This document shows, piece by piece, positions 42,408 to 58,839 of a stretch of DNA of 64,000 bases. Source of the DNA: a virus (lineage: Duplodnaviria > Heunggongvirae > Uroviricota > Caudoviricetes); the IMG/VR virus record IMGVR_UViG_3300037471_000830; one strand, 5' to 3'. Position 1 is the stretch's first letter, and each line of letters starts with the position of its first letter. The position numbers were made by a program, and so were the translations under genes. Below the pieces are notes generated by a model, which saw only the letters and a program-made list of their open reading frames with translations, was not told the origin of the DNA and made no database searches.

Positions 42408-42454
42408 CCTAGATCGCCGAACCAGCGCCTGAGACCCGTTCGCACAATGCTCTT

Positions 42455-42926: not shown

Positions 42927-42941
42927 GGGCGCCACAAAGCA

Positions 42942-42971
42942 AGGGCCAGGATCACCACCTGGCCCTTTTCT
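42942..42971 (+). terminator. rho-independent terminator (AGGGCCAGG-atcaccac-CTGGCCCT + TTTCT)
   Basis: 9-bp stem and T-run directly after brnA-like stop. Confidence 0.6.
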
Positions 42972-43856: not shown

Positions 43857-44141
43857 ATGAACAATCCAAAGCCCGCCACATTCGTCCTGGTGATGCTCCG
43901 GGAGCTTGGCCGCGCCGAGATGTTCCTGACCACCGCCGAGGACGAACTTGCCCGCCACCAGATCATCTATGCCTTCTCTCCAAGGACGGAAGGCACCGGC
44001 TTTCAGATTCGCATCCGGCGTGAGTTCCTGGAGCCGGCCAACCTCATGGATGAGGAAAGCCTAGGCGCGGTGGAGCGCGCCATCGAGGCGGAGCTTCTGA
44101 CGCTGTTGACGCTCCACAGGGCCAAAGCCAAGGCTGCCTGA
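43857..44141 (+). CDS. hypothetical protein
   Basis: ATG 43857 with AGGGAGAAAGCC RBS inside ORF 43614..44141. Confidence 0.45.
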   Translation: MNNPKPATFVLVMLRELGRAEMFLTTAEDELARHQIIYAFSPRTEGTGFQIRIRREFLEPANLMDEESLGAVERAIEAELLTLLTLHRAKAKAA

Positions 44142-44275
44142 TTCATTCCTTCTTCTCTCCTGGGCCAAGGAAAGCCTAGGCGGGGTTGCAGGCGACGCAG
44201 CTCTCCTGTCTCTATCTCCTGAGTGCGGTCGGTGAAATACACCCATCGACAACAACGACACGGAGAGAAGAAGGA

Positions 44276-44578
44276 ATGCCCAAGATCATCCAAATCAAAG
44301 GTTTCTACGAAGGCGATCACATCGAGCACATCTTGGGCGAGCAGGCTGCGGAGCCAAGGGAGGACTGGAAGCGCATCCAGCGCGTTCCGCTCGTCGAGGG
44401 CCAGCCCTGGTTCAACGCCTACCCGATGACGGGTGGCGCGGTGATCGTCCAGCAGCACCGGATCGTGGAAGTGCGTGAGGCGACGCTGGACGACTTGGAG
44501 AAGGTCAAGCTGTGCATGCCCTTCAATCCTGCGTACCAGCGCGTCCTGGCGCTGTTCCAGGCTGAGGCGCCGGCATAG
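44276..44578 (+). CDS. hypothetical protein
   Basis: ATG 44276 with GGAGAGAAGAAGGA RBS; followed by terminator. Confidence 0.5.
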   Translation: MPKIIQIKGFYEGDHIEHILGEQAAEPREDWKRIQRVPLVEGQPWFNAYPMTGGAVIVQQHRIVEVREATLDDLEKVKLCMPFNPAYQRVLALFQAEAPA

Positions 44579-44602
44579 TCCTGGATGTGACCGGAGAGAA
44601 GG

Positions 44603-44622
44603 AGAGGGCTTCGGCCCTTTCA
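44603..44622 (+). terminator. terminator hairpin (AGGGC-TTCG-GCCCT + TTC)
   Basis: same GGGC-TTCG-GCCC core as other terminators in window. Confidence 0.5.
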
Positions 44623-44906
44623 TGAGCACGTCAGGGCCTAGGCATACGGCGGCGAGGCTGAAAATCCTTGGCTTCGAGGCCGGAAGCCGCCGTAGAGCTG
44701 CCGGAGTCCATGGAAAGCCTAGGCGCGGTTTTCCTATAAGACACTAGATGTAGTGTCCAGTCATGCCAAAAACTCGGGTTTTATGACTCCGTGGACACTA
44801 GATGTAGTGTTTGGCTGGTTCACAGGCGGCGTGCAGCGCCAGCGTGGCCTGCCTGGGGCTGACGGGCGTAATGAGGGCTCCCGAAACACGACCTGAGCCC
44901 GATTCC

Positions 44907-45152
44907 ATGAACATCCAGTTCGCGATCAATTCCACCCTGCATGCCGCTGCCTGTGGTCTCGATATGTCCGACTGCTGCGCAATAGGCATCCACGACAGCG
45001 AGGGCTGCATCCTGGCCCATGACGTGCTCCACCCCGAGACCCTGGAACGGCTGGTCTCGGCGGGCGTTCGCATCCTGCGCGGTCACGTCGCCATCCTGAG
45101 CTTGTGCGGTGTGGACTACGTGACGGTCAAGGCAGAGGTCACGGAGCTGTAA
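44907..45152 (+). CDS. hypothetical Cys-rich small protein
   Basis: in-frame ATG in ORF 44811..45152; followed by terminator. Confidence 0.4.
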   Translation: MNIQFAINSTLHAAACGLDMSDCCAIGIHDSEGCILAHDVLHPETLERLVSAGVRILRGHVAILSLCGVDYVTVKAEVTEL

Positions 45153-45155
45153 TCC

Positions 45156-45177
45156 GAGGGCTTCGGCCCTTTTGGGA
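45156..45177 (+). terminator. terminator hairpin (GAGGGC-TTCG-GCCCTT + TTGG)
   Basis: GC stem with TTCG loop and T-run. Confidence 0.5.
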
Positions 45178-45243
45178 ATCGACGCCATGGAAAGCCTAGG
45201 CGTGATGGTGTGCAAAAGAAAAGGAGCCGAAGCTCCTGGTCCT

Positions 45244-45468
45244 TCAGCCCGCCATTTCGGCGTGATACCGGGCGTCTGCCTGACGCTCGCGGTATATGGA
45301 AGCGTACTGTCCGATTTTCTTGATGGCGCCTTCCTTGGTTCGGCACTTCAGAATCACCTCCTCAATCTCCTTGTCCTCCCACGCTTCGACGATCACGTCC
45401 CAGCCTTCCTCGTAATGAGCGTTGGCGTGATCGCGGACGGCTTGGATCATTTCGTGCATCGGAACCAT
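45244..45468 (-). CDS. hypothetical small acidic protein (only minus-strand ORF in repeat region)
   Basis: ORF track; amino-acid composition more protein-like than overlapping + strand ORF 45172..45612. Confidence 0.45.
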   Translation of the reverse strand: MVPMHEMIQAVRDHANAHYEEGWDVIVEAWEDKEIEEVILKCRTKEGAIKKIGQYASIYRERQADARYHAEMAG

Positions 45469-45738
45469 GATGAATTTCGGTGTCGGTTGTTTCGGGAGCC
45501 CTCAGTATCTGAAGTGGGCGCAGGATCGTGGCGCTCCAAATTCAGGTTGCCTCAGAGGTCGCCGATGCCGGCAAGAAAGCCTAGGCATCTAAGCCCCAGC
45601 GCCAGGCTCTAAGCCGCTGTCCTAGGCTTTCCATGGCGCGCTTGCATGCCTGCGCAGCTTGCCTGGGGTCCGCCTGAAGCGGGCTTGCATAGTTCAGTCA
45701 TCGCTGAACTACAGCACAAACCAGACCGAGGAGTGATC

Positions 45739-45912
45739 CATGCAAGCCCTGAAGCCTTCCATCCTGCCCGCGCTGCCCATTGACGCCGACGCCCACGACG
45801 ACGAGCACTACGCCTACGAGCTGATGCAGGAGGAGCTGGAGATTCAGGAGCTGCGCAGCAAGCGCCAGCGCATCGCCCGTCCGCACTTTGCTGCCGGCAT
45901 GGAGCGCCACTG
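45739..45912 (+). CDS. hypothetical small acidic protein (57 aa)
   Basis: ATG 45739 preceded by GAGGAGTGATCC and the AGTTCAGTCATCGCTGAACT palindrome; translation read manually. Confidence 0.3.
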
Positions 45913-45914
45913 AA

Positions 45915-46130
45915 ATGCCGCGCTACTGGATTTTCAACGCCGACTACAAGCGCATCGCCGAAACCGACAGCCTGGCCGAAGCGCGCTTCTTCGCCGGCTT
46001 GGTGAGCTTCCACCCTGGCACGTCTATGGAGCGTCGCGTGTACGAGGCGGTGGACATGAAGACCACGCGCTGCATCCAGGCCCAGCCGCTGCTGCCTTTG
46101 GTGATGGCGGAGATGCTGGACAAGCAGTGA
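45915..46130 (+). CDS. hypothetical small protein
   Basis: ATG 45915 in ORF 45888..46130; followed by terminator. Confidence 0.4.
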   Translation: MPRYWIFNADYKRIAETDSLAEARFFAGLVSFHPGTSMERRVYEAVDMKTTRCIQAQPLLPLVMAEMLDKQ

Positions 46131-46140
46131 TCGCGCGACG

Positions 46141-46162
46141 GGAGCCTGTGGGCTCCTTCTCT
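46141..46162 (+). terminator. rho-independent terminator (GGAGCC-tgtg-GGCTCC + TTCTCT)
   Basis: perfect 6-bp GC stem plus T-rich tail. Confidence 0.55.
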
Positions 46163-46799
46163 ATGGGCCAGAGAACGCCTAGGACCGTCTGCCAGCGCCT
46201 TGGAGCGCGGCGGCATGGCTGGATTCCTTTGGCTTTGGAGAGCGCGGCGGCGCTGTAGAGGGCTCTGGAGAGGCTGCTGGTGCCTTGGAAAGCCGGCAAT
46301 GCCATGGAAAGCCTAGGCGTTGCTGGAGATGGATTTGGAGCTCTGGATTTCGGAGTACGGCGGACTGGCTGGAAATCCTTGGATTTTTGTGTACGGCGGC
46401 GAGGCTGGAAACGTTAGGAGTAATATCGCGCGGCGGGGCAGGGCGGTCGCTCAAAACCGCAGGTCGCCTTTTCGAGCGCGAGCGGCCGAATCCACGACAG
46501 AAGCCAAAATCCGCGTCAGAAGTCATTTCCACTGGAAATGCGAAAAACCGCAGGAGTCGCGGTTTTCACCGGAAAAGCGAATATGCGCAGGAGTCGCAGT
46601 TATTGCGACTGACGCGGGTTCCATGGGTTTTACGGGTCCACCAGTCTTTACGCTTTTTGGGTTTATTCCAGAAAGTTCGTTCCGCGTTGAATGGGGGCAT
46701 GCATAAGTCAGCAGTGAGTGCATAATGGGCACCAGTTCGCAGCACGGTGCAGCGAACGAAGCAGAGCAAAGTTGCTCAGTCACTAGTGAAAGGTTTCAC

Positions 46800-47703
46800 C
46801 ATGAACGCTCAAGCCGCAAAGCCCGCCCGCAAGACTGCTTCCCGCAAGACCGCAGCGCGCAAGCAAGAGCAAGCCGCAGTTGCTCCCTCGTTCGCCCTTG
46901 TCGTTGCGGGCGAACTGGTGCAGCACGTTAACGGTGATGACGTGTACGCAGCAAAGCAAGCCCTCGCACTGCCCGCACCGCAACCCTTGATTATTGACGG
47001 TGCAGACCTTGTGCGGGAAGTTGCAGACACGTTGCAAGCCGCTGAGATTGAATCGCCCGCTGACTTCACGACTACCGAAACCATCGCCCCCGCTACCGTT
47101 GAAACCACTACCGAAGCCGCACCTATGAGCACTGAAAACACTTTCACCGCGCGCATGCTGCACGCCCTTGCTGCACGCCCGCAAGCAAGCAAAGATATTG
47201 ATCTCACTGTCAGCGCAATCAAAAAGGGCGAGCGCGCGCTAAATATGCTCGCTGCTCGCCCTGAGTGGTCAGATGTCTGTGAATCGCTTGTGAAGCGCGC
47301 AAGCGTTGCAGACAAGGGCAATAGCGGCTTTGTCGCGGTGAAAGCATGGGTAAAGATCATTCACGCAATGACGGGCATAAGCGCGGGCATCAAGGGCTAT
47401 TTTGACCCGTATTCCCGCACCATCATTGCGAACCTTGCAGCGGGCGTGAATCTCACGAACAAGGGCGCGCTGGTCTCGCTGAGTAAGTCAATTGAATTCA
47501 CTGCGCTTGACACTGAGCAAGCCCTTAAAGCCCGCTATAACTGCGGTGCGAGCACTGCAACCACTCAAGCAAGCAGCACGCGCATGATGCTGCAAGCCCT
47601 GGGTTTGTACGCGGTGCAAAAGGGCAAGGTCGGTGACGTTATCACCCCGCTTGAGAATGCGCGCACTGCGGCTTTGGTTGCAATGTTCAAAACGGGCGAG
47701 TAA
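46800..47703 (+). CDS. hypothetical protein in lower-GC island
   Basis: ATG 46800 in ORF 46747..47703; local GC visibly lower than genome average. Confidence 0.5.
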
Positions 47704-47774
47704 ATAATAAGTCAGTGGTGACTGTTTCACGTGAAACGGTCACCCCGCAAGTAAATCAGCAAAGCACTCAGATC

Positions 47775-48032
47775 ATGAACCACAGCACTCCCGAAACCCG
47801 CGCGCTGCGCGCTTTCTACTCCCTGCGTCACAGTGCAAAGCGCGTGCGTAAAGCGCATGGGTCTAAGCATCTTGCTTATCGTTTGCTGCTTGCGCATCAA
47901 GGGCATGCTGCTTATCACGCGCTGCCCACCTGTGAAGCCCGCGCGGTGCAAGGTATTGGGCGATACATCATGAACCCGCTTCACTCCCTTGCAATGCGCA
48001 CCATGCGCGCCCATTTTCCCGCTGGGTACTGA
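47775..48032 (+). CDS. hypothetical His/Arg-rich small protein
   Basis: in-frame ATG in ORF 47715..48032; weak. Confidence 0.25.
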   Translation: MNHSTPETRALRAFYSLRHSAKRVRKAHGSKHLAYRLLLAHQGHAAYHALPTCEARAVQGIGRYIMNPLHSLAMRTMRAHFPAGY

Positions 48033-48307
48033 CCGCCCGGGTCTGTCAAGCGAAACCCGAAGTCTTAGCGGGTTTCGTGCCGCTTGGCTCCCTTGCCTTC
48101 CTCATTCCAGGTCAAAACCCACCCTCCTTATACAGCCTGGCCAGGCACCGAATATCCGGTCCTTATAGAGCCAATCCCGGGCTGTCCAATATCCCATCCT
48201 TACAGAGCCAGGACTCCACAGTCCAATTTCCCAGGCTCCAATTTCCCAAAGTCCACTCTCCAACAGCCGAAACTCCAGGCTGGGATAATTCAGGCGTGAA
48301 TGTTCAC

Positions 48308-48637
48308 ATGCCCAAAGGAGATACGACGTTGTTCCAACACAAGCTCACGCGCGAGGAACAAGGCTGGGAGAAACCCACCGCCCCTGCGAGCAAGGAGTCG
48401 ATGCGTGCCCGCATCGCAGAGTTGAAAGCCGAGCTGGAGCCGCTGGAGCGCCAACTGGCCGAAGTCGAGGATCAGGAGCGCCTGGAGGCGATCGTCAGAA
48501 TCAGAAACCTCATGCGTGGCTTCGAGCTGTCCTGGGCTGACATCCTCCCGAAGAAAAAGCGCCGTGGACGCCCCAGGAAGGTCGAGAGCGCCGCCAACGA
48601 CGCTGTGATGGGTGACGCGAGCACGTCCGAGGCGTGA
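48308..48637 (+). CDS. coiled-coil plus AT-hook (KKKRRGRPRK) DNA-binding protein, H-NS/xenogeneic-silencer-like architecture
   Basis: N-terminal coiled coil (RARIAELKAELEPLERQLAEVED), C-terminal RGRP AT-hook; ATG 48308 with AAAGGAGATACGACG. Confidence 0.45.
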   Translation: MPKGDTTLFQHKLTREEQGWEKPTAPASKESMRARIAELKAELEPLERQLAEVEDQERLEAIVRIRNLMRGFELSWADILPKKKRRGRPRKVESAANDAVMGDASTSEA

Positions 48638-48671
48638 GTTCGGCGGCGCTTGATGCGCCACTGAGAGGTGG

Positions 48672-48851
48672 TCAGGTGCTCTTGCTCTGCCACGCCTTGC
48701 GCAGCAGTTCTTCCAGCTCAGCCAGCTTGCGCTTGCCAAGGTCGGCCCCGGAGTTGGTCTCCCACCAGCCGCCTTCGGGCTCGTCCATCTCCGTGCGGTC
48801 GATGCCGTCGAGCGTCTCCCTGACGCTGGCGATGAGCGTGTCGATGTCCAT
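48672..48851 (-). CDS. hypothetical small protein (last gene of minus-strand operon)
   Basis: ATG at 48851 overlapping upstream stop; part of ORF 48672..49106(-). Confidence 0.4.
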   Translation of the reverse strand: MDIDTLIASVRETLDGIDRTEMDEPEGGWWETNSGADLGKRKLAELEELLRKAWQSKST

Positions 48852-49180
48852 CACCGGCGAGCCTTGCGGCCCTTGACCTTGAGAATGGCCTCCACGAAGG
48901 CGAAGTCCGCTTCGTCCATGCCGGCGAACTGATTCAGCGCCTTCTTCTGCGCCCGCTCGATGACCTTCTTCCTGCGCGTCTCCTCGATCGCGGCTTGCAG
49001 GGCCTTCTCGTCCTTCGTGGCGAGCTGCATGAGGGCATCCAGCACGTCGGCGATGCTCAGGTTGTTCTCGCGGCACCAGCGCACGATGCGGTAGTAGTGC
49101 CGCCACTTGGCCTCGATGGTGGTGCGGACGAGTTCGTCCGAGTCGGCCATCTTGGGGTCGAGGGTCATGCGGCGGGGCAT
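48851..49180 (-). CDS. hypothetical protein
   Basis: ORF track minus strand; 2 nt after helicase stop. Confidence 0.5.
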   Translation of the reverse strand: MPRRMTLDPKMADSDELVRTTIEAKWRHYYRIVRWCRENNLSIADVLDALMQLATKDEKALQAAIEETRRKKVIERAQKKALNQFAGMDEADFAFVEAILKVKGRKARR

Positions 49181-49182: not shown

Positions 49183-50796
49183 TCAGGCCGCCTTCTTCAG
49201 GTCGGGGAAGCCTTCGGCGTCGTAATCGAAGTCCGCGCCGCCCAACAGGATGCCTTCGGCAAAGCCTGGGGTGTTGGACACGATCTCTCGGCGCTGCTTG
49301 GCGTGCTTCATCAGGTTCTCGTTGAAGCGGTCCTCGAAGTCCACGATGAAGCAGGTGTTCGGCCCCGCCTTCTTCGCCCGCAGGCCGCGACCGACACGCT
49401 GACGCAGCGCGACCTCGGCCTTGCCGCCACCGGCCAGGATCACCATCCCCACAGCCGGCACGTCCACACCCACATCCAGGATGGTCGTGCCAATGAGCAC
49501 GTCGAGCTTGCCGCTGCTCAGGGCTTGCAGCGCCCGCTTGCGCCCGACCTGATCGTCCTCACCCTGGATAAAGCTCGCCCGCAGACCCCGAGCCTCCAGC
49601 AGCTCCATCAGCCGCTCGCCGTGCTTCTTGTGCTGAACCAGCGCCATGACGGTGAGGCCACGGCCGACCGCGCGGTGAGCCTCGAAGGCAATCGCCTGGT
49701 TGCGCTCCTCGTTCTGCACGATGCCCAGCCGGTAAGCCGCCTGCCAGGCGGTGTTGCGCATCAGGTGCTCGGGCTTGGTGTGGAGCTGCACGAACTTGAA
49801 GATCGGGCGGGCCAGGATGCCGCGCTCGATGAGGGTCTGCTCCGAGACACGGATGGCGATCGGGCCGGAGGACGCCATCAGCCGCATGTTGGCTTCTTCG
49901 TCGCTGCGCATGAACGGCGTGGCGGTCAGCGCCAGCCGGTAGTGCGCGTTGATGCAGTGGCGCAGGATGTCGTAGTACGAGTTGCCGCCCGCCTCGTGGG
50001 CTTCCTCCAGGATCACGAACTCGAACTTGGACAGCAGGTTGATGGTCTGCTCGCGCAGCAGGGCTTGCTGACGCTGCTTTTCCGGCGTGTCCTTCGGGTC
50101 AGGCTCTGCCAGGCGAGCCACCAGGGTCTGCACCATGCCCACGGACATTTTCTTGATCGCGCTGCGCTCACGGCCATCGGCACCGACGATGGTGTGACCA
50201 AACTGGCCGTCGCCGAGCACGGACACCGACTGCTTCAAGTCCTTCTCGAACGTGTCCTTCATTTGGTACATGAGGACCGAGCGCGTGGTCAGGAACAGGG
50301 TGGGGCGGTTGATGCGGGCGAATGCCAGGCGGGCGATGCGTGATTTGCCGCCACCCGTGGCGACCTGGGCAATGATTTGGCCGTGCTTCACCAGCCGGCG
50401 CACAACTTCGGGCTGATAGTCGTAGCGCGGGTCTTCCGGGAACTCATCGACCACGGGATTCTCGGGACCAAGTGGCGCGGGCATGGGCTTTCTGACAAGC
50501 CGCACTTCGTAGCCATCGCGCTTCAGGTGCGCAGTGACGAAATGCACGAACCCGGCAGGGAAGGTGCCCTTTTTGAAATCGAGAAAACTGGATTTGCCAT
50601 CCCAGCGGCCGGTCTTAAACAGCATCGTGTTTTCGTGACCGGCCACGGTGTACGAAAGCGCGGTCTGGACCAGCAATTTGGCGTCGCGGTCGGGCTCGTG
50701 CAACTTGGCCGTGACGGCATTGGCAAGAATGGTGATCGTCTTCATTTTGGCTGTGGCTTGACCGCGCTCCATAAGGACATTATTATAAGTCATCAC
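49183..50796 (-). CDS. SF2 DEAD/DEAH-box DNA helicase (UvsW-like)
   Basis: motif I ATGGGKS, motif II ILEEAH, motif III LTATP, motif VI QRVGRGLR; alternative start at 50745 (MKTITIL). Confidence 0.8.
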   Translation of the reverse strand: MMTYNNVLMERGQATAKMKTITILANAVTAKLHEPDRDAKLLVQTALSYTVAGHENTMLFKTGRWDGKSSFLDFKKGTFPAGFVHFVTAHLKRDGYEVRLVRKPMPAPLGPENPVVDEFPEDPRYDYQPEVVRRLVKHGQIIAQVATGGGKSRIARLAFARINRPTLFLTTRSVLMYQMKDTFEKDLKQSVSVLGDGQFGHTIVGADGRERSAIKKMSVGMVQTLVARLAEPDPKDTPEKQRQQALLREQTINLLSKFEFVILEEAHEAGGNSYYDILRHCINAHYRLALTATPFMRSDEEANMRLMASSGPIAIRVSEQTLIERGILARPIFKFVQLHTKPEHLMRNTAWQAAYRLGIVQNEERNQAIAFEAHRAVGRGLTVMALVQHKKHGERLMELLEARGLRASFIQGEDDQVGRKRALQALSSGKLDVLIGTTILDVGVDVPAVGMVILAGGGKAEVALRQRVGRGLRAKKAGPNTCFIVDFEDRFNENLMKHAKQRREIVSNTPGFAEGILLGGADFDYDAEGFPDLKKAA

Positions 50797-50810: not shown

Positions 50811-51470
50811 ATGTCCAGACTCAAGATCGAATATGGGCCGCCGACGCGGCTCGTGGCGAACGACTACAACGTCAATGTCGTCAGCCCGGAGAACCAGGCG
50901 AAGATCGACGCTTCCGTGTCGAGGTTTGGTTTCTTCAAGCCGATCCTCTGTCGGGAACTGCCTGACGGTCGGCTTGAAATCATCGGCGGCGAACACCGAT
51001 GGCAGGCCGCGCAACGCCTGGGCATTGCCGAGGTTCCCTTCATCAATCTCGGACCCCTGAGCGACGCGAAGGCCAAGGAAATTGGCATCGTGGACAACGG
51101 CCGCTATGGCGCCGACGACACGCTGCGCATGGCGGAATTGCTGGAGAGCATTGGTCTGGATGCCGATGAACTCGCCTCCTTCATGCCGTATTCCGAGAGC
51201 GACTTCAACGCGATCTTCTCGTCAGTCACTATAGAACTCGACGAGTTGGATCTTGACGAGGACGAGGCGAAGAAGCCCGAGTCGCCTCGCGAAAAGCCTG
51301 CCCAAACCGCCCAGGTGCTGCGTTTCAAGGTCGGCTTGGAAGACGCCGACTGGATTTCCAAGCTTGTGACCCGAACCATGAAGACGCAGGGCTTCAAGGA
51401 GGCCGACGAGCTGACCAACGCCGGCGACGCGCTGGTTCATCTGCTGCGAGGGATCAAGGATGCCGCGTGA
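50811..51470 (+). CDS. ParB N-terminal-domain (ParB/Srx) nuclease-like protein
   Basis: IIGGEHRWQAAQRLG matches ParB GxxRxxA box. Confidence 0.6.
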   Translation: MSRLKIEYGPPTRLVANDYNVNVVSPENQAKIDASVSRFGFFKPILCRELPDGRLEIIGGEHRWQAAQRLGIAEVPFINLGPLSDAKAKEIGIVDNGRYGADDTLRMAELLESIGLDADELASFMPYSESDFNAIFSSVTIELDELDLDEDEAKKPESPREKPAQTAQVLRFKVGLEDADWISKLVTRTMKTQGFKEADELTNAGDALVHLLRGIKDAA

Positions 51471-51651
51471 GAAAGCCCATGGCCCGCGCGGCTTCGCCGA
51501 GTGCCGCCGCTGCATGAACGCCGAGTACGACCCCTTCGCCTGCAATGGCTGCGCGAACGGGTCGGCCTTTGAAGCCTACGAGGAGGAGCAAGACGCCGAG
51601 GACTTCTCGCTGTCCGAGTTCATCTCCACCTACCGCGAGGAGCTGTCGTGA
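51460..51651 (+). CDS. hypothetical small Cys-containing protein
   Basis: ORF track. Confidence 0.4.
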   Translation: MPREKAHGPRGFAECRRCMNAEYDPFACNGCANGSAFEAYEEEQDAEDFSLSEFISTYREELS

Positions 51652-51803
51652 AGCTGGTTGTCCGCATGAACGACGGCAGCGTCCAGAAATTCGAGGACGA
51701 GCTGCTGGATCAGGTCTTCGAGGAGTCTGGTCCTGCCTCCGCCATCGGCCTGATCAAGCGCGAGCTGATCGACGCCGCCACCGTGCTCCTGCGCATCAAG
51801 TAA
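51648..51803 (+). CDS. hypothetical small protein (51 aa)
   Basis: GTG 51648 overlapping previous stop; manual translation. Confidence 0.25.
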   Translation: MKLVVRMNDGSVQKFEDELLDQVFEESGPASAIGLIKRELIDAATVLLRIK

Positions 51804-51810
51804 GAAGCCC

Positions 51811-52017
51811 ATGGCTACCACGACCATCAAGTATTTCTCCTACGCCCATTTGCCGCCGTTCTTGCAAATGGTGAGCAAGCCCTTTCACGAGTTGGCGCAC
51901 CAGCTCGAAGCCATGCTTCCTGACGGCCCGGAAAAGAGCGCCGGCCTGCGCAAGCTGCTGGAAGCCAAGGACTGCATGGTGCGCGCCACCCTCGACGCCA
52001 TGGAGACCAAGAAGTGA
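51811..52017 (+). CDS. hypothetical small protein
   Basis: ORF track. Confidence 0.45.
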   Translation: MATTTIKYFSYAHLPPFLQMVSKPFHELAHQLEAMLPDGPEKSAGLRKLLEAKDCMVRATLDAMETKK

Positions 52018-52406
52018 GACTTCCCCGACTGTTCCTGATGACCGCCGCGCTGGCGGCTTCCCTGAGCCTGACCGCCTGCCAGCCTGAAGTGGTGGCCGCC
52101 GCGCCGGCTGCTTCCGCGCCCCAGGTGGTTCCCGTACCCCAGGCGGCCGACAGCTTCGACACCGGCGACGCGGCCCTGGGTGCCGTGGCCGGCGCTGCGG
52201 CGGGCTACATGCTGGGCAAGGCCGCCTCGCCGAGCTACGCCCACCCGCCCCAACCGCAGACCGTGGTGGTGCATCAGCCGCCCCCGCAGAGCGCCTACTA
52301 CGGCCAGCGCAACGCCTACACGACCACGACGACCACCGTGCGCCGCAGCGGCTTCGGCGGCAAGACCGTGACCACCACGCGCACCGTGACGAGGGGCCGG
52401 CGATGA
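52014..52406 (+). CDS. lipoprotein with glycine-zipper (lipobox SLTAC; GAVAGAAAGYMLG) and Thr-rich C-terminus
   Basis: signal peptide plus LTAC lipobox read from translation. Confidence 0.55.
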   Translation: MRLPRLFLMTAALAASLSLTACQPEVVAAAPAASAPQVVPVPQAADSFDTGDAALGAVAGAAAGYMLGKAASPSYAHPPQPQTVVVHQPPPQSAYYGQRNAYTTTTTTVRRSGFGGKTVTTTRTVTRGRR

Positions 52407-53044
52407 AACCCAACATCCAAGTCTGGTCCGTCGAGGACGTGAAGCCCTACGAGGCCAACGCCAAGAAGCACCCACCCGAGCAGATTCGTCGCATCGCCAA
52501 GTCGATCAAGGAGTTCGGCTGGACGCAGGCCATCTCCGTGGACAAGGACGGCGTGATCATCGCCGGCCACGGCCGCCGCCTGGCTGCGATGGAGCTGGGG
52601 CTGAAGCAAGTGCCGGTGTGGGTGCGTGACGACCTCACGCCGGAGCAGGTCCGCGCCGCGCGGCTGGCCGACAACCGCGTGGCCGAGTCCGAGATCGACA
52701 CCAACCTCCTGCAAGCCGAGCTTCGCGCGTTGGACTTCGACCTCTCTGGCATCTTCGACGACAAGGAGCTGGCCTTCCTGGATGCCGACTTGGCCGAGCT
52801 CAACGCCGACGCCTTCGTCGCTGATCTGGACGCCGAAGTGGAGCGCCAGGCCGAGGAGACCCGCGCCAAGATCAAGGAAGTGGACGAGCGCACGATCCGG
52901 CTGGACCAGGCGTTCGGCTTCAAGAGCATCAAGGGCGCCGATGAGCGGGCGATTGCCATGTTCATGGCGCAGATCGAGAGCGAGACCGGCAAGGAGGGCG
53001 CCGAGGCCCTGGTCGAGCACGTCAAAACCTACCGCGGAAAGTAA
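52403..53044 (+). CDS. ParB N-terminal-domain nuclease-like protein (second copy)
   Basis: VIIAGHGRRLAAMELG ParB box. Confidence 0.6.
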   Translation: MKPNIQVWSVEDVKPYEANAKKHPPEQIRRIAKSIKEFGWTQAISVDKDGVIIAGHGRRLAAMELGLKQVPVWVRDDLTPEQVRAARLADNRVAESEIDTNLLQAELRALDFDLSGIFDDKELAFLDADLAELNADAFVADLDAEVERQAEETRAKIKEVDERTIRLDQAFGFKSIKGADERAIAMFMAQIESETGKEGAEALVEHVKTYRGK

Positions 53045-53051
53045 GTCATAA

Positions 53052-53459
53052 ATGACTGCCAAAAAAGTTGCCGCCAAGACCGAGGCCGTTGCCGCTACGA
53101 CGCGCGGCCTCATTACCGACGAGCAGGTTTATGCCGCCATGCCGCGCGTCGTGAAGGTCGGCTGCTATGACTTCACCATCGAGGTCATGGACGAAATCGA
53201 GGGCAACGCCAGCGATGCCTTTGGCTACTGCTATCCCGGCAAGCAGACGATTCGTCTCCTGTCTGGACTCAAGCGCCAAAAGCTCGCCAACGTCTTCCTG
53301 CACGAAGTCCTGCACGGCATCCACTGGTTTCACGGCCTGGGTGACGAGAACAACGAGGAGGACTTCACCCTGCTGGGCGCCAACGGCATGTGCGCCTTCT
53401 TCCAGGACAACCCGGACGCCGCGGCCTGGTTCATGGCGGCCAACAAGGGGGCGCGATGA
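53052..53459 (+). CDS. small HExxH zinc metallopeptidase-like protein (SprT-like)
   Basis: FLHEVLHGIHW motif with upstream GY.YPG..IRL pattern reminiscent of SprT/WLM family. Confidence 0.45.
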   Translation: MTAKKVAAKTEAVAATTRGLITDEQVYAAMPRVVKVGCYDFTIEVMDEIEGNASDAFGYCYPGKQTIRLLSGLKRQKLANVFLHEVLHGIHWFHGLGDENNEEDFTLLGANGMCAFFQDNPDAAAWFMAANKGAR

Positions 53460-53587
53460 CCATCGCCTTTGCCCTGCCCGAGTGGCTGGTGTGGCTGCTG
53501 CTGGGCTGGAGCCTGGTCTGCGGCGTGGGCGTCCTGTGGTTCGGCTACCAGCTCTACCGGATGTTCTGGAAGGGGGACCGCGCGTGA
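53456..53587 (+). CDS. very small membrane protein (43 aa)
   Basis: ATG 53456 overlapping previous stop; single TM helix. Confidence 0.3.
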   Translation: MTIAFALPEWLVWLLLGWSLVCGVGVLWFGYQLYRMFWKGDRA

Positions 53588-54258
53588 CCACCTACGTCAT
53601 CAACAAGCGGTTCTCCACCCACGTCCAGCGCAGCGACCGCGTGCTGGAGATCGCCGAGGCGTTCGGGCTGGGCCTGGACGACAAGGAGTTCGTCGTTTAC
53701 GACAACCTGGCGCTGGAGGTTCGCCGAGGCGACGTGGTTTACATCACGGGCCAGAGCGGCAGCGGCAAGTCCACGATCCTGCGTGAGCTGATCGGCGCCA
53801 TGAAGGCCGAGGGCCTGCTGGTGGCCGACATCGACCGCGTGGAGCTGCGTGAAGTGCCGCTGATCGACCAGATCGGCGACACCACCCAGCGCGGCCTGGA
53901 ACTGCTGTCCATCGCCGGCATGAACGACGCCAACCTGTTCGTGCGCAAGCCCAGTGAGCTTTCGGACGGCCAGCGGTATCGCTTCCGGCTTGCCAAGGTC
54001 ATCGAGTCCGGCGCCCAGGTGTGGGCGGCCGACGAGTTCATGGCCGTGCTGGACCGCGACACCGCCAAGGTCATCGCCTACGCCATCCAGAAGTGCGCCC
54101 GAAAGATGGGCGCAACGCTCATGGTCGCCACCACGCACACCGACATGGTGGCCGACCTGGCGCCCTCCATCACCATCACCAAGAAGTACCGCGAGAAGGT
54201 CCACATCGAGAGCGTGTGGGTCAAGGAACACAACGAAGAAAGCAAGGAAGCGCAATGA
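53584..54258 (+). CDS. minimal ABC-type ATPase (nucleotide-binding domain only, 224 aa)
   Basis: Walker A GQSGSGKST, Q-loop, signature LSDGQRYR, Walker B VWAADEFMAVLD, H-loop ATTH; GTG start overlapping previous stop. Confidence 0.7.
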   Translation: MTTYVINKRFSTHVQRSDRVLEIAEAFGLGLDDKEFVVYDNLALEVRRGDVVYITGQSGSGKSTILRELIGAMKAEGLLVADIDRVELREVPLIDQIGDTTQRGLELLSIAGMNDANLFVRKPSELSDGQRYRFRLAKVIESGAQVWAADEFMAVLDRDTAKVIAYAIQKCARKMGATLMVATTHTDMVADLAPSITITKKYREKVHIESVWVKEHNEESKEAQ

Positions 54259-54716
54259 CGCACCGCTACATCGGAACGAAAGAAATCATGGCCTGGCCGA
54301 CCGAAAAAGACGGCAAGCCAGGCTACAGCGTCAAGTACGCAGATGGCTACATAAGCTGGAGTCCGGCTTCCGCGTTCGAGCCGGCCTACCGTCGCGCTGA
54401 AGGCGGAGACCAGCGCCTGACCTTTGGCGATGCGCTGCACTTCCTGAAGCTGGGGCGACGCGTCGCCCGCGCTGGCTGGAATGGCAAGGGCATGTGGTTG
54501 GCCTATACGCCTGGCAGCCATATCGGGCGCGAATGCGTCAAGCCCGGCCACGCATTGAGCCAGGTTGCGGTCGATCTGCCTGAGCGCGACCTGTTCCGCA
54601 TTGAAGCGCACATCGACATGCGGACCTCTGACGGCTCGCTGATGGTCGGCTGGACGCCAAACACACTGGACGTGCTGGCCGAGGACTGGATGGTCATCGC
54701 GGAGGGCGCGCAATGA
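54255..54716 (+). CDS. DUF2829-family protein (Thoeris anti-defense Tad2-like fold) with N-terminal extension
   Basis: FGDAL.FLK.GRRVARAGWNGKGMWL and HIDMRTSDGSLM.GW..N..D.LAEDWMVI resemble the DUF2829 signature. Confidence 0.55.
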   Translation: MTHRYIGTKEIMAWPTEKDGKPGYSVKYADGYISWSPASAFEPAYRRAEGGDQRLTFGDALHFLKLGRRVARAGWNGKGMWLAYTPGSHIGRECVKPGHALSQVAVDLPERDLFRIEAHIDMRTSDGSLMVGWTPNTLDVLAEDWMVIAEGAQ

Positions 54717-55048
54717 TCGAAGTCACCTCCACCCGCCAATTCACCGAGCAAGCCATCACGGCTTCGCACCATGCCGCTGTGGTCGTGCTGTTCGGTGCGC
54801 CCTGGTGCGGCCCGTGCAAGAGCTACAAGCCGCTGCTTGCGCGCCTTTGCGACGAGCGCGGGGTCAAGCTGTACTACGTCGATGCGGACGCGCTGCGCGA
54901 GCTTGCCGGGCTGTACGGCGTGCGCGCGGTGCCCACCACCGTCGTCCTCAAGGGCGGTGGCGAGCTGGGCCGGCAGTCGGGCGGCCTGGCCGAAGCCGCC
55001 GTGAAGCACCTGTTCGCCAAGCACGGCGTTCCGATGCTGGAGTTCTGA
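54713..55048 (+). CDS. thioredoxin
   Basis: active site WCGPC in VVLFGAPWCGPCKSY context. Confidence 0.85.
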   Translation: MIEVTSTRQFTEQAITASHHAAVVVLFGAPWCGPCKSYKPLLARLCDERGVKLYYVDADALRELAGLYGVRAVPTTVVLKGGGELGRQSGGLAEAAVKHLFAKHGVPMLEF

Positions 55049-55050
55049 GC

Positions 55051-55248
55051 GTGCCGACGATCATCGAACGCGGCGAACTGCCGGAAGCAAAGGTCCACGA
55101 GGCCCGCTGCACCCGCTGCAAGACGCTGTTCAGCTTCAAGACGGCCGAGGCGCGGGCGAGCAATGACCCGCGCGATGGCGCGCTGCTGGTGATCCGCTGC
55201 CCGCTGCCTGGCTGCAACAACGAGGTTTGGCACGATGCGCGCCGCTGA
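55051..55248 (+). CDS. small zinc-ribbon protein (CTRC...CPLPGC)
   Basis: GTG start 2 nt after trx stop; ORF 54805..55248 frame. Confidence 0.4.
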   Translation: MPTIIERGELPEAKVHEARCTRCKTLFSFKTAEARASNDPRDGALLVIRCPLPGCNNEVWHDARR

Positions 55249-56170
55249 AGTCCTGCTGGACAACGAGGAGCTGCGCGTCGAGCGCCGGGAGGTTCCCAAG
55301 GACCACCGGCTCTCGCTGCTGTCGCGCTGCTACATCGAGGCGGGCACCAAGGACGATTGGAACCTGCTGCACGAGCTCCACTACAAGGCGGAGCGGCTGG
55401 GCATCGGCCCGCGCTACTGGCGCTGCGTCATGGACGGGCAGACCATCGGCGTGGGCGTCATGACCGTGCCCAAGATGCTCCTGTCCGGGCGCAACAAGGC
55501 GTTCAAGCACCTGAAGCCCAACCAGGGTGGCGGGCGCGACACCAAGCTCATGAACCGCCACCGCGCCGTGTGGATGAACGAGGTCATCTGCACCAACTCG
55601 CGCCTGGTCCTGGACACCATGTATCGCGGCGCCGGCCTGGCGTACCGGATGCAGAACCTGATGATGCGCATGACGGGCTGCCAGAGCATCGAGTTCCAGT
55701 CCTCGATGTCCAAGTTCAACCCGTTTGCAGAACGGGCTGGCATGCGCTTCACCAAGCCGTCGCGCGCTCAACACTACGAGCGGGGCCTGAAATGGTTCCG
55801 CCGCTGGTTCGAGTGCAACCCGTCCGACTTCGTGGGCCTGATGGACGAGCTGCAAGCCATGCCGGAGCGAGCCAGAGACAAGTGCGTCGCCGAGATGCGC
55901 CATCTTTATTACGCATGCTCTGCCATGGAGAAGTCCGGCGACAACCGCATGAACGGCACTTCGCGGGTGGATGGCATGTCCGTGCCTTACCTGATCAAGT
56001 CCTTGCAGCAGTTGATCCTCGCCAGCCCGCTTTATGGCGTGTACCTCAACCCTGATTTCGGCCGCGAGCTGCCTGATCGCATTCCTGTGCTCGCCTTTGA
56101 TCTCCAGGCCGTCGATCAACCGCTGAACCTTGAGGGCGTAAATCGCCTGAGCGCCGAAATAAATCAGTGA
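55235..56170 (+). CDS. hypothetical protein with GNAT-like motif A (LDTMYRGAGLAYRM)
   Basis: ORF track; GNAT call is weak, single-motif based. Confidence 0.5.
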   Translation: MRAAEVLLDNEELRVERREVPKDHRLSLLSRCYIEAGTKDDWNLLHELHYKAERLGIGPRYWRCVMDGQTIGVGVMTVPKMLLSGRNKAFKHLKPNQGGGRDTKLMNRHRAVWMNEVICTNSRLVLDTMYRGAGLAYRMQNLMMRMTGCQSIEFQSSMSKFNPFAERAGMRFTKPSRAQHYERGLKWFRRWFECNPSDFVGLMDELQAMPERARDKCVAEMRHLYYACSAMEKSGDNRMNGTSRVDGMSVPYLIKSLQQLILASPLYGVYLNPDFGRELPDRIPVLAFDLQAVDQPLNLEGVNRLSAEINQ

Positions 56171-56535
56171 CCGCCGTGACTAGCTCCGCAGACCTCTACC
56201 TGACCACCAAGCAGATTCAGCTTATCTCCGTGGTGGGCCAGCGTAATGACGATGGTTCCGCCATCGACCTTGACGAGTTGCTCGAAAGGCTGCCGTACCA
56301 GCCCTCCAAGCAGAGCGTGCAGTTCAGCCTCAGAGCCCTGGTCAAGCGCGGACTGCTCGCCAAGTCCGAGGCCACGGAGCTGCGGCGCGGCCGCAAACGC
56401 CGGCTCCTGGAGCTGACCGAGGCCGGCAAGACCTTCCTTGGAAGCCGCGCCCGCTCCCATTCCGCGACTTCCTTCATGGTTGCGGCTGACGAAGACGAGG
56501 GCTTGGAAGCCCTTGAGGCGCTGAAAATTGGTTGA
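56167..56535 (+). CDS. winged-helix (PadR/MarR-like) DNA-binding protein
   Basis: QFSLRALVKRGLLAKSE...RRGRKRRLLELTEAGK helix-wing pattern. Confidence 0.45.
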   Translation: MTAVTSSADLYLTTKQIQLISVVGQRNDDGSAIDLDELLERLPYQPSKQSVQFSLRALVKRGLLAKSEATELRRGRKRRLLELTEAGKTFLGSRARSHSATSFMVAADEDEGLEALEALKIG

Positions 56536-56822
56536 CTTCGACAACTTGTTTTTTTACCCCCTCAGCGTAAATATATATAGATAAGAAGAAGAACAGAGAA
56601 AGCTAAAACGTTTACGCTGAGCGAGGCGAAAAACAAGTCCAAGCTAAGTCAACGCTGACAGGGCGGAACGGAAAACGCAGCCCCAAAGAAGCCGCCAACA
56701 TGACCCGAAGCTACCCACGCCGCCCCTCACCGGATTGGCGGTCTCCCAAGCCCCTCAAAACGCGCCGGAACGTGACCGCGCTCGCGGTGCTCGCCCCGGT
56801 CTTCTCGTTGCATCAAAGATCA

Positions 56823-56863
56823 GTCAGCACTGACTTGACAAACGCCAAGGCATCGGTTATCTT
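56823..56863 (+). promoter_or_regulatory. sigma70-like promoter (TTGACA - 17 nt - TATCTT) overlapped by GTCAGCACTGAC palindrome, upstream of terS
   Basis: TTGACA 56835..56840; -10-like 56858..56863. Confidence 0.4.
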
Positions 56864-56932
56864 TGGCGCTCCTTTCAAAGTCATATCCCAGGGCGCCTTC
56901 TCCAGCGCCCATTTTTTTGCCCATTCGAGCCC

Positions 56933-57565
56933 ATGAGCGAAACGCCCGCCAAGAAGCCGCTGACGCCGCGCCTCAAGGCGATTGCGGAAGCCCTGTGGAA
57001 GACCGGCGAGTTCAAGAGCCGCCGCGAGCTGGCAAAGCACCTGGAGGTCAGCGAGAGCGCCCTGGCCGCCTTCATCAAGATCGAGGACAAGGGCAAGGCC
57101 GTCGAGAAGGTCAAGGAGGCGGTCGAGGAGGCTGCGGTCGAGGCTGCGGTCGAGGAGCTGACGCTGCACCAGCGCCGCGTCCAGGACACCAAGGAGCAGC
57201 ACTACAAGATGGCCGAGCACATCGCCGGCTTCGTGTGGAAGGAGCTGCTCAAGGCCAAGTCCGAAGGCATCCCGTTCGGCGTGGTTGCGCCCAACATCAA
57301 GGCGCTGCACGAGGCGATGGCCGTGCTCAACAAGGCACGTGTCGAACGCTACGCGACCTTGGGCATCTCCGAGGACGACGTGGGCGAGGAGGAAGTGCCG
57401 GAGCTGTTCATCTCCGAGCTGACCCAGGAGCAGGTCGAGGAAATGCGCCTGGCTCAAGAAGATGACGACTCGGTAGGCGAAATGCCCGATCCCGAGGAAG
57501 ACCCTGGCAAGGGCGTCGTGGACACCACCGACGACGAGGACGACGGCGTGGAGGAGCTGTCCTGA
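56933..57565 (+). CDS. terS: terminase small subunit (putative)
   Basis: N-terminal HTH-like segment, highly acidic C-terminus, immediately upstream of and coupled to terL (ATGA). Confidence 0.55.
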   Translation: MSETPAKKPLTPRLKAIAEALWKTGEFKSRRELAKHLEVSESALAAFIKIEDKGKAVEKVKEAVEEAAVEAAVEELTLHQRRVQDTKEQHYKMAEHIAGFVWKELLKAKSEGIPFGVVAPNIKALHEAMAVLNKARVERYATLGISEDDVGEEEVPELFISELTQEQVEEMRLAQEDDDSVGEMPDPEEDPGKGVVDTTDDEDDGVEELS

Positions 57566-58839
57566 TGGCTGTCATGCGTCGTCGCTTCGACCTGCGTCTG
57601 CACGCCAAGCAGATGGAGGTCTTCCGTTGCAAGGCGCGCTTTCGGGTTGTGGTCGCCGGCCGACGCTGGGGCAAGACGGCCCTGTCGCGCGTGCTCATGA
57701 TCAAGGCCGCGCAGAAGCCGCGCCAGAAAATCTGGTACATCGCGCCGACCTACCGGATGGCAAAGCAGATCATGTGGACCGATCTGCTGGAAGCCATCCC
57801 GAAGAAGTGGATCGCCAAGGTCAACGAGACCACGCTGATGATCCGCCTGATCAACGGGTCGCGGATCGAGCTCAAGGGCGCCGACAAGTCCGACACGCTG
57901 CGCGGCGTGGGCATTCACTTCCTCGTGCTCGACGAGTTCCAGGACATGACGCCCGACACCTGGACCAAGGTGCTGCGCCCGACCCTGGCCGACACCCAGG
58001 GCGACGCCATCTTCATCGGCACCCCCAAGGCGTACAACTACCTCTACGAGCTTTACAAGCTCGGCCAGCGCGGCGACTTCTACACGGACAACAAGGGCAA
58101 GGTCCGCAAGAACCACTGGATGAGCTGGCAGTTCATGACTGCCACGAGCCCCTTCATTCCGCTGTCGGAGCTGGAGGCGGCCAAGCGCGACATGGACGAG
58201 AAGTCCTACAAGCAGGAGTTCGAGGCGTCCTTCGAGACCATGAGCGGCCGGGTGTACTACCCGTTCGACCGCAACGTCCACGTCGGCAGCTACGCCTTCA
58301 ACCCCAAGCTGCCGATTTGGGTGGGCATGGACTTCAACATCGACCCCATGTCGGCCGTGATCCTGCAAAAGCAGCCGGACGGCGCACTGTGGGCGGTGGA
58401 TGAGGTTGTGCTGGGCAGCTCCAACACCGAGGAGGTCTGCGAGGAGCTGGAGAAGCGGTACTGGCGCCACCAGGACCACACCGTCATCTACCCCGACCCC
58501 GCAGGCGGCCAGCGCCAGCACGCGCGAGGCGAGACCGACATCGACATCCTGCGCGAGAAAGGCTTTCGCAAGGTCAAGTACCGCCGCAAGCACCCCGCCG
58601 TCGCCGATCGCGTCAACGCCGTCAACCGCATGCTGCGCGCTGCGGACGGCTCCGTGCGCATGTTCGTCAACGAGAAGTGCAAGCACTTCATCGGCGCGCT
58701 GGAGCAGACCATCTACAAGAAGGGCTCCCGCGACGTGGACAAGGACGCCGGCGTGGAACACGCAGCGGACGCGGCCGGCTACTGCATCGAGCTGGAATTC
58801 CCGCTGCGCAAGATCGCTATCGCTGGCCTTTCGCGCTGA
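57565..58839 (+). CDS. terL: terminase large subunit
   Basis: Walker A VVVAGRRWGKT, Walker B/DE (FLVLDEFQDM), C-terminal RNaseH-like nuclease acidic residues; size 424 aa. Confidence 0.85.
   Translation: MAVMRRRFDLRLHAKQMEVFRCKARFRVVVAGRRWGKTALSRVLMIKAAQKPRQKIWYIAPTYRMAKQIMWTDLLEAIPKKWIAKVNETTLMIRLINGSRIELKGADKSDTLRGVGIHFLVLDEFQDMTPDTWTKVLRPTLADTQGDAIFIGTPKAYNYLYELYKLGQRGDFYTDNKGKVRKNHWMSWQFMTATSPFIPLSELEAAKRDMDEKSYKQEFEASFETMSGRVYYPFDRNVHVGSYAFNPKLPIWVGMDFNIDPMSAVILQKQPDGALWAVDEVVLGSSNTEEVCEELEKRYWRHQDHTVIYPDPAGGQRQHARGETDIDILREKGFRKVKYRRKHPAVADRVNAVNRMLRAADGSVRMFVNEKCKHFIGALEQTIYKKGSRDVDKDAGVEHAADAAGYCIELEFPLRKIAIAGLSR

Follow-up and report, generated by a model that had tools for sequence, protein, structure and literature searches.

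Several DNA-modifying systems couple a protein of the ParB superfamily, an ABC ATPase, or both, to the modifying enzyme. In the Dnd system, which also includes DndC, the ParB-like DndB works with the ABC ATPase DndD (PMC10853773), and in the Dpd system the ParB-like ATPase DpdB works with DpdA (PMC12839542); both serve mostly in cellular defence. Phages and plasmids carry fusions of an N-terminal ParB domain to a DNA methyltransferase (phrog_498; PADLOC MTase_II), which also lie near terminase genes. Mom of phage Mu, a GNAT-fold protein with an anti-restriction role, modifies adenine late in infection and is the precedent for a GNAT enzyme acting on double-stranded DNA (PMC13219725). The family annotated as 'ABC-type ATPase fused to a predicted acetyltransferase domain' (COG2401, 'MK0520-type'; here ABC-GNAT) has been predicted computationally to acylate a DNA base, according to Iyer et al. 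2021 (PMC7824862), which cites Iyer et al. 2013. Here, we analysed a DNA stretch of 64,000 nucleotides (nt), referred to as the window, from a virus of the class Caudoviricetes (IMG/VR record IMGVR_UViG_3300037471_000830). It is a segment of a tailed-phage genome with a G+C content of about 62%, and it contains an operon at 50811-56535 (+ strand) in which genes for two ParB/Srx-domain proteins (ParB1 and ParB2), an ABC ATPase, a GNAT-fold acyltransferase and a winged-helix protein make up a conserved core.

The proteins of the window were compared with PHROG, Pfam, PADLOC, NCBIfam and PDB for domain evidence. The ABC ATPase gene (53584-54258, +, GTG start) encodes 224 amino acids (aa; PF00005, 6.6e-13) and has no membrane partner. 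The motifs of the ATPase are intact: Walker A (GQSGSGKS, residues 56-63), the signature (LSDGQ, 126-130), Walker B (VWAADEF, 146-152) and the H-loop (ATTH, 182-185). The GNAT gene (55235-56170, +) encodes a basic protein of 311 aa (isoelectric point (pI) 9.2), in which a GNAT-fold acyltransferase domain (about residues 30-175) is followed by a helical C-terminal domain. This protein matched phrog_886 over its full length and had no match in Pfam or PADLOC. We searched 1.84 billion representatives exhaustively for its distant homologues and found proteins of 450-560 aa that match it in their C-terminal half; their N-terminal half is an ABC ATPase according to Pfam, with weak GNAT hits behind it. 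Concatenation of the ABC and GNAT proteins of the window gave a sequence that aligned end to end with 49 fused proteins (28-36% identity). On the alignment of the fused proteins, AlphaFold2 modelled the concatenate with a mean predicted local distance difference test score (pLDDT) of 88.8 and a predicted template modelling score (pTM) of 0.85; the 311-aa protein alone reached a pLDDT of 89.7. Judged by these alignments, the ABC ATPase is the counterpart of the N-terminal half and the 311-aa protein that of the C-terminal half of the ABC-GNAT fusions, the two being one enzyme in split form. The window system is a split variant of the ABC-GNAT family. Its two genes lie 977 nt apart with three open reading frames (ORFs) between them, and all 85 SSU5-like relatives that we compared are likewise split.

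The split and fused families have invariant residues in common (H49-Y50, R86, R123, R131, G134, E153, M158 and G169). R131-x-x-G134 is the GNAT pyrophosphate-binding motif and, like the ATPase motifs, it is kept in essentially all distinct relatives, which argues for acyl-coenzyme A (acyl-CoA) as the donor. The same ATPase, H-Y, acyl-CoA and C-terminal Y-x-W/Y-x-N-P motifs occur in the window pair and in the fusions, and both are found in viruses. Unlike the fusions, the window has two genes with three cargo genes between them, two separate ParBs and a winged-helix protein. The ATPase half resembles plain nucleotide-binding domains, including those of the soluble, non-transport ABCE1, PhnK/L, methyl-coenzyme M reductase activation component and ABC-F proteins.

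Two familiar assignments of these proteins were considered and rejected. An ABC transporter does not fit, because the operon has no multi-pass membrane protein or permease (its sole membrane ORF is a 43-aa single-pass peptide) and the homologues are fused to GNAT domains; the NCBIfam matches of the ATPase were transporter-type and all below threshold. The label 'ABC transporter' is wrong for both the ATPase and the 311-aa protein, though it is routine. A GNAT toxin-antitoxin pair of the TacT/AtaT type combines, as a mobile module of two genes, a GNAT of about 170 aa with a small adjacent antitoxin; here, the protein has 311 aa and an extra C-terminal domain, and it is fixed in a five-gene core.

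ParB1 (50811-51470, +, 219 aa) has a ParB/Srx N-terminal domain (PF02195, 9.3e-12, 45.3 bits against a cut-off of 26.3; phrog_723, 2.9e-56). ParB2 (52403-53044, +, 213 aa; phrog_930, 1.3e-84) is a second ParB/Srx-domain protein, whose Pfam ParB_N score of 25.7 bits is just under the cut-off of 26.3 and which matched ParB proteins of the PDB at 1e-4. It also matched phrog_498, 'DNA methyltransferase' (2.2e-38, N-terminal part only), and PADLOC MTase_II (8.3e-25, residues 5-150). The G-x-x-R-x-x-A motif of the ParB/Srx superfamily reads GGEHRWQAA and AGHGRRLAA in the two proteins, and in both only the N-terminal domain was recognised, TIGR00180 scoring 33-41 bits where its cut-off is 58. The winged-helix gene (56167-56535, +, 122 aa) is the last of the operon; its product matched phrog_900 (1.7e-24) and, weakly, PadR, HTH_27 and MarR_2.

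The core follows the logic of Dnd and Dpd, in which a ParB, an ABC ATPase or both are coupled to a DNA-modifying enzyme. However, the chemistry of those systems is different (phosphorothioate and 7-deazaguanine), their catalytic subunit is not homologous to that of the window, and DndD has a coiled-coil insert that the window ATPase lacks. Mom acts alone and uses Gly-tRNA, whereas the window family keeps the acyl-CoA pyrophosphate motif and would depend on ABC and ParB partners. Sequence searches linked the GNAT family neither to Mom nor to any protein of solved structure, save for a generic match to motifs A/B. In the ParB-methyltransferase fusions, the N-terminal ParB domain matches ParB2; the core has no methyltransferase domain, and the ABC-GNAT pair stands in place of the catalytic domain.

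We compared 85 related SSU5/Nickievirus-like loci, taken from annotated phages, two assembled contigs and 80 IMG/VR contigs, and mapped the window proteins onto them. These syntenic loci come from Salmonella, Klebsiella, Escherichia, Pseudomonas, Stenotrophomonas and Rhizobium phages, from Burkholderiales genomes and from uncultured viral contigs. The order was constant in all of them: a helicase gene on the minus strand, ParB1, slot A, ParB2, slot B, ABC, slot C, GNAT, winged helix, a non-coding gap, a gene similar to the small terminase subunit (TerS-like, phrog_867), the large terminase subunit (TerL) and the portal. Presence was counted among the loci reaching the position in question. The core genes were found in 85 (GNAT), 79 (ABC), 78 (winged helix, always immediately after GNAT), 75 (ParB2) and 72 (ParB1, always first) loci. 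Other genes were less regular. A thioredoxin was present in 59 of 79 loci, always right after ABC, and an HExxH protein in 44 of 79, always right after ParB2. A small Cys-rich protein of the 63-aa type followed ParB1 in 30-45 relatives, and a DUF2829 gene was found in 10 of the 85 loci (after ParB1 in six and after ABC in the rest). A zinc-ribbon ORF in slot C of the window was found in none of the 85. SSU5, nickie and BUCTxx99 have the bare core without cargo. ParB1, ParB2, ABC, GNAT and the winged-helix protein, constant in order and presence and with three of their number joined elsewhere in a single polypeptide, look like one conserved phage machine and not like independent accessory genes. 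The HExxH protein, thioredoxin, DUF2829 and zinc ribbon occupy variable slots and are swappable cargo.

The TerL of the window shares 59-64% identity with its counterparts in Pseudomonas phages nickie and hairong, Rhizobium phage RHEph10, Salmonella phage SSU5 and Klebsiella/Escherichia phage-plasmids. A megablast search of the region against 50,697 phage records gave no close relative. The closest homologues of the 311-aa protein (65-74% identity) are encoded by contigs of 105-112 kb and by Burkholderiales genomes (Cupriavidus, Burkholderia gladioli, Duganella, Polaromonas and Herbaspirillum), and thus the host is probably a betaproteobacterium.

The link between ParB, ABC and GNAT was also found outside this group. 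Using our own profiles, built from 60-odd ParB1 and ParB2 sequences, we detected an N-terminal ParB domain in at least six of the longer ABC-GNAT representatives (627-699 aa) and in one more locus (L077, 7011-9011), with values of 1e-6 to 1e-11. In these ParB-ABC-GNAT fusions the Pfam ParB_N match is weak, and there is a weak zinc-ribbon match between the ParB and ABC parts. The unrelated actinophage Axumite of Gordonia begins its genome with four relevant genes: gp1 is ParB-like (1e-9 against our profiles), gp2 is an ABC-GNAT fusion (4.5e-38) with the HHY and QGAGIG motifs, gp3 is a methyltransferase and gp4 is the terminase. ParB, ABC and GNAT are therefore linked in three ways, by a conserved operon, by an independent gene pairing and by fusion. 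The preliminary description of this DNA had held that the domains are not normally found together in an operon and that the arrangement was, as far as could be told, undescribed. The first statement is contradicted by the 85 loci, in which the core is syntenic beside the terminase, and by the ABC-GNAT and ParB-ABC-GNAT fusions; the second is overtaken by the acylation prediction for ABC-GNAT in Iyer et al. 2021 (PMC7824862). The literature that we searched yielded no description of the split form, the two ParB partners, the winged-helix protein or the variable anti-defence slots, and nothing on COG2401 or MK0520. Some other fused forms were seen. A family-B DNA polymerase is fused to ABC-GNAT in ORFs of 1260-1310 aa (L024, 5595-9377; L058, 5445-9377; proteins P0235 and P0205), P0169 has a C-terminal TFIIB repeat, and P0196 has an intein with a LAGLIDADG domain inside its ATPase.

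Proximity to the terminase was likewise found beyond the SSU5-like loci. Of 80 uncultured viral contigs with a fused ABC-GNAT gene, 54 carry it directly behind a Terminase_6-type TerL, where the structural operon ends, and its nearest homologues are mostly in metagenome-assembled genomes of Nitrososphaerota/Bathyarchaeia. Among the IMG/VR loci L004-L083, the contig ended within 350 nt downstream of the ABC-GNAT stop codon in 24 of 75 and upstream in none. In those contigs ABC-GNAT seems to be the last gene at the genome or provirus end, right after TerL. In the Firmicutes prophages of Desulfofarcimen and Heliorestis (fused genes at 9542-11328 of L166, 9534-11338 of L168 and 9516-11338 of L006), the order is ABC-GNAT, Amidoligase_2 (PF12224), a GGACT gamma-glutamyl cyclotransferase-like gene (PF06094), TerL and portal, and the acyl group might be elaborated further in these elements. 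The Heliorestis prophage has two DNA methylases upstream of ABC-GNAT.

The best explanation of the core is, in our opinion, an ATP-driven, ParB-assisted and acyl-CoA-dependent acylation of phage DNA, a reading that we favour tentatively and place somewhat short of an even chance. ParB1, ParB2, the ABC ATPase and the GNAT protein would form a multi-subunit, nucleic-acid-directed acyltransferase, of which the winged-helix protein is a probable further member. The ParB/Srx proteins, and possibly the winged-helix protein, would recruit the complex onto phage DNA; ATP-driven dimerisation of the ABC domains would clamp or remodel the substrate; and the GNAT domain would transfer the acyl group from acyl-CoA to the exocyclic amine of a DNA base. 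This would occur late in infection, in keeping with the place of the genes beside those for packaging, and the mark on packaged genomes would blunt host restriction. What we infer here is that the complex forms, that it acts on DNA with this chemistry and at this stage of infection, and that it counters restriction. The obligate ParB partners point to DNA as the target, and the likeness of ParB2 to the ParB domains fused to DNA methyltransferases points to DNA modification. So does the position of the module beside packaging genes, which is a frequent site of phage DNA-modifying genes. We also count in its favour the parallel with Dnd and Dpd, the precedent of Mom and the basic charge of the GNAT protein.

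However, several observations weigh against DNA acylation. Both ParBs are acidic overall (pI 4.7-4.9) and have no recognisable helix-turn-helix (HTH), and their DNA binding is assumed from a superfamily whose members act on nucleotides and proteins too. The ABC domain resembles those of the transporter type, not of the DNA-clamping SMC/Rad50/MutS type, and has no coiled-coil insert. The GNAT fold match is generic, the AlphaFold2 concatenate is an artificial fusion, and the ABC-GNAT family is known from computational prediction alone. Proximity to the terminase fits a packaging role or protein modification equally well. In addition, the literature that we searched, including the Nickievirus and RHEph10 papers, reports no modified base or restriction-resistant DNA in SSU5-like phages.

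It is possible, rather than probable, that a ParB-coupled, ATP-driven, acyl-CoA-dependent complex is common to SSU5-type phage-plasmids, Nickievirus, some actinophages and many archaeal viruses and installs an as yet unseen acyl modification, for example N4-acyl-deoxycytidine or N6-acyl-deoxyadenosine, on genomic DNA around packaging. If so, it would be a new class of DNA hypermodification, with the first GNAT that needs ABC ATPase and ParB partners to act on DNA, and would add to Dnd and Dpd a third example of DNA modification powered by ParB-superfamily proteins and ABC ATPases. Acylation of DNA by the core would also mean a new base modification in archaeal viruses and in the phage-plasmids of Salmonella, Klebsiella and E. 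coli, which are of medical relevance, with a bearing on restriction evasion, sequencing artefacts and phage engineering.

The acceptor could instead be a protein. A ParB-recruited ABC-GNAT enzyme might acetylate some protein of the host or the phage, for example a nucleoid protein, RNA polymerase, the terminase, the portal or a defence protein, for host takeover or for tuning of packaging. This would preserve the acyl transfer and, as said, would agree with the location beside the terminase. Yet it leaves unexplained both the fusion to, or obligate pairing with, ParB domains and the likeness of ParB2 to methyltransferase-linked proteins, and no candidate substrate gene co-varies with the module. 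We consider it unlikely, though deserving of some weight.

The cargo bears on another possibility. The DUF2829 gene in slot C (54255-54716, +) encodes 153 aa with an N-terminal extension of about 50 aa (PF11195, 2.6e-19, 69.9 bits against a cut-off of 25). Its product matched the solved Tad2/AcrIIA7 proteins at 1e-9 to 2.5e-14 (SptTad2 8wjd, 2.5e-14; HgmTad2/AcrIIA7 8kbi, 2.7e-13; 9eib and 8v3e, 1.2e-12). It shares the PF11195 domain with the Tad2 sponges (SPO1 Tad2, HgmTad2/AcrIIA7 and SptTad2) and differs from them in the extension. In HgmTad2, the residues in contact with glycocyclic ADP-ribose (gcADPR) are W21, N22, S90, T92 and D93 (PMC10680739). In a sequence alignment, the window protein keeps the W, N and D, within a G-W-N-G-K-G motif that includes the Trp-Asn contacts and at a C-terminal Asp, and has N for S90 and L for T92 in the S-Q-T-D motif; since two of the five contact positions differ, its ligand is uncertain. 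By sequence, it is a genuine member of the Tad2 (Thoeris anti-defence 2) family and a predicted signal sponge, which as such would sequester gcADPR or cyclic dinucleotides and counter Thoeris or CBASS.

Similar genes recur in the slots of relatives. In Rhizobium phages DUF2829 also comes right after ABC. Acb2/Tad1-hairpin proteins (PF24729, 56 bits) are found in operon slots, slot A among them, of nine loci plus L084, and slot A in relatives holds either Tad2-like or Acb2/Tad1-like genes. Further occupants of the slots in relatives are an SPFH/Band-7 lipoprotein, a GIY-YIG homing endonuclease, an N4-gp49-like protein and many small membrane peptides. Sponge-type anti-defence genes have landed in this operon repeatedly in relatives, and its three variable slots are a predictable place in which to seek new anti-defence genes. 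In the window, slot A (51460-52406) contains a Cys-rich protein of 63 aa (51460-51651, +), a 51-aa ORF (51648-51803, +), a phrog_1761 protein of 68 aa (51811-52017, +) and a lipoprotein-like protein of 130 aa (52014-52406, +), which has the signal LSLTAC and a Thr/Pro/Ala-rich, low-complexity body and had no PHROG match.

Slot B begins with the HExxH metallopeptidase-like protein (53052-53459, +, 135 aa; HEVLH at residue 84; phrog_1233, 1.2e-13), which had no sequence match in the PDB. The HExxH motif is kept in all 32 distinct sequences of this protein, and it may be functionally part of the core in the lineages that have it. An assignment to the SprT-like or DUF6782 family was rejected, since both matches were below threshold (13.1 bits against 25.6 and 19 against 27) and the motif is all that is shared. 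A single-pass membrane peptide of 43 aa (53456-53587, +) fills the gap between the HExxH and ABC genes exactly, with ATGA/GTGA overlaps on both sides, and small hydrophobic ORFs occupy the same slot in relatives (clusters S25, S28, S31 and S35).

In slot C, DUF2829 is followed by a thioredoxin (54713-55048, +, 111 aa; WCGPC at residues 31-35; PF00085, 6.8e-17, 61.8 bits), which also matched TIGR01068 (1.4e-17) at 63.7 bits, below the equivalog cut-off of 96.8. We rejected thioredoxin as a part of the machine, because SSU5, nickie, BUCTxx99 and the Rhizobium phages lack it and the phage itself encodes a class I ribonucleotide reductase (15431-19136; NrdA 15431-17704, NrdB ending at 19136). With this enzyme and a ThyX-type thymidylate synthase (21171-22010) the phage is well supplied for nucleotide metabolism, which offers the thioredoxin an ordinary candidate role or partner. 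Other genes of the window encode a Pol III alpha-like polymerase (349-3912), a UvsX/RecA-like recombinase (6948-7955) and SbcCD (9524-13319). The last ORF of slot C is the zinc-ribbon-like one (55051-55248, +, 65 aa; CTRC ... CPLPGC), with weak matches only (Zn_ribbon_4, 0.024; phrog_2834, 1.8e-5) and with no sequence relative upstream of GNAT in the 85 loci.

From such genes the preliminary description had proposed that the whole cluster is a candidate accessory island for anti-defence or host manipulation, which as a rival explanation would have every gene acting independently. A genuine Tad2-family gene in the window, Tad2-like and Acb2/Tad1-like sponges in the same operon of relatives, and a high turnover of cargo, including the membrane peptides, the SPFH protein and the GIY-YIG endonuclease, all agree with it. 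But five genes are constant in order and presence over 85 loci from several host phyla, three are fused elsewhere, and PADLOC gave no meaningful match to a defence system, only to the methyltransferase ParB domain and a generic P-loop. As an account of the whole cluster it is doubtful, clearly on the unlikely side. The anti-defence idea survives for the cargo, to which it would be confined, and fails for the core. Comparison of neighbourhoods, proposed at the time as a check, gave the same division: DUF2829, zinc ribbon, HExxH and thioredoxin genes are scattered or absent in relatives, and the core genes are not. The domain calls for ParB, ABC, DUF2829, thioredoxin, GNAT, winged helix and HExxH were borne out, that for the zinc ribbon is weak, and the 'SprT-like' family did not reach the Pfam threshold.

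The boundaries of the transcription unit were also revised. The preliminary description had placed eight tightly coupled genes at 52403-56535. All eight are there on the + strand, and the junctions across the cluster are indeed ATGA/GTGA overlaps or gaps of 2-7 nt; but the 43-aa ORF is a ninth one inside, and the overlapping chain begins upstream, at ParB1 (50811), and stops at 56535 before an inverted repeat. The unit is therefore one operon of 15 ORFs (50811-56535, +), of which the cluster is the downstream two-thirds. The helicase gene and ParB1 diverge, and the region between them has a promoter-like site (TTGACC-17-TATTAT, 50758-50786, +), which matches the consensus at 10 of 12 positions, is identified by this match only and is likely to be the operon start. 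After the operon comes a non-coding gap of about 400 nt (56536-56932) between the winged-helix and TerS-like genes. It opens with an imperfect inverted repeat of 28 nt (56544-56638, 82% complementary) around an A+T-rich spacer of 39 nt (TATATATA), and contains a second promoter-like consensus match (56835-56863) before the TerS-like gene. In relatives the equivalent gap is mostly 300-650 nt long, within a range of roughly 230-1260 nt. The gap of the window could harbour a terminator, a late promoter or the packaging site. Then follow, by PHROG matches and homology, the TerS-like DNA-binding gene (56933-57565, +; phrog_867), the adjoining TerL (57565-58839, +) and the portal gene (from 58871). 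In some relatives the TerL ORF is about twice the usual length (2.5 against 1.25 kb; L118 4112-6649, L150 7505-10072, L153 8256-10832, L155 and L160 8256-10820, L142 8621-10468), which suggests an intein or other insertion.

Could the core be an accessory to packaging? The ParB-like proteins, as nucleases or NTPases, and the ATPase would then help the terminase to recognise or process genome ends, with the GNAT protein in a regulatory role. The module adjoins TerS/TerL in at least four unrelated virus groups, 24 of the 75 viral contigs end just downstream of the gene and none upstream, and Nickievirus genomes have long direct terminal repeats (PMC11256456). Against this speak the acyl-CoA motif and the H-Y and Arg residues, whose strict conservation favours true acyl transfer; a separate TerS-like gene is present, and DNA-modifying genes too typically adjoin terminases, as the two methylases of the Heliorestis prophage illustrate. 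We regard this explanation as improbable.

RNA as the acceptor is more improbable still. The enzyme would act like TmcA/NAT10 on cytidine in tRNA or rRNA, or like GNAT toxins on aminoacyl-tRNA. Its combination of ATPase and GNAT is the logic of TmcA (mentioned in PMC13219725), and in nickie genes for tRNA-Met and tRNA-Asn precede the module by about 2 kb (L001, 1267-1428); yet the 64-kb window has no tRNA genes, no similarity to the helicase-type ATPase or the tRNA-binding domain of TmcA was found, the ParB partners point to DNA, and a protein of this size that has no antitoxin is unlike a GNAT toxin-antitoxin pair. Weakest of all, and hardly credible, is plasmid partition, in which the two ParBs and the ATPase would segregate a prophage-plasmid: SSU5 relatives are phage-plasmids and Pfeifer et al. 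2021 counted the duplicated ParB genes of related Acinetobacter phage-plasmids as partition functions (PMC7969092), but those elements carry a separate parA (PMC7969092), the ATPase here is of the ABC type, fused elsewhere to GNAT, and not ParA, neither the central HTH nor the C-terminal dimerisation domain of partition ParBs is present in ParB1 or ParB2, in which the N-terminal domain alone was detected, and the module also occurs in Nickievirus phages, which have shown no temperate behaviour (PMC8537276), in lytic-type Gordonia phages and in archaeal viruses. Nor is there support here for the routine reading that makes partition genes of the duplicated ParBs.

Upstream of the helicase gene, the stretch 42000-48900 of the window has few convincing ORFs, on mixed strands, and a lower G+C content (0.57-0.60). 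It may be a regulatory, early or replication-origin region.

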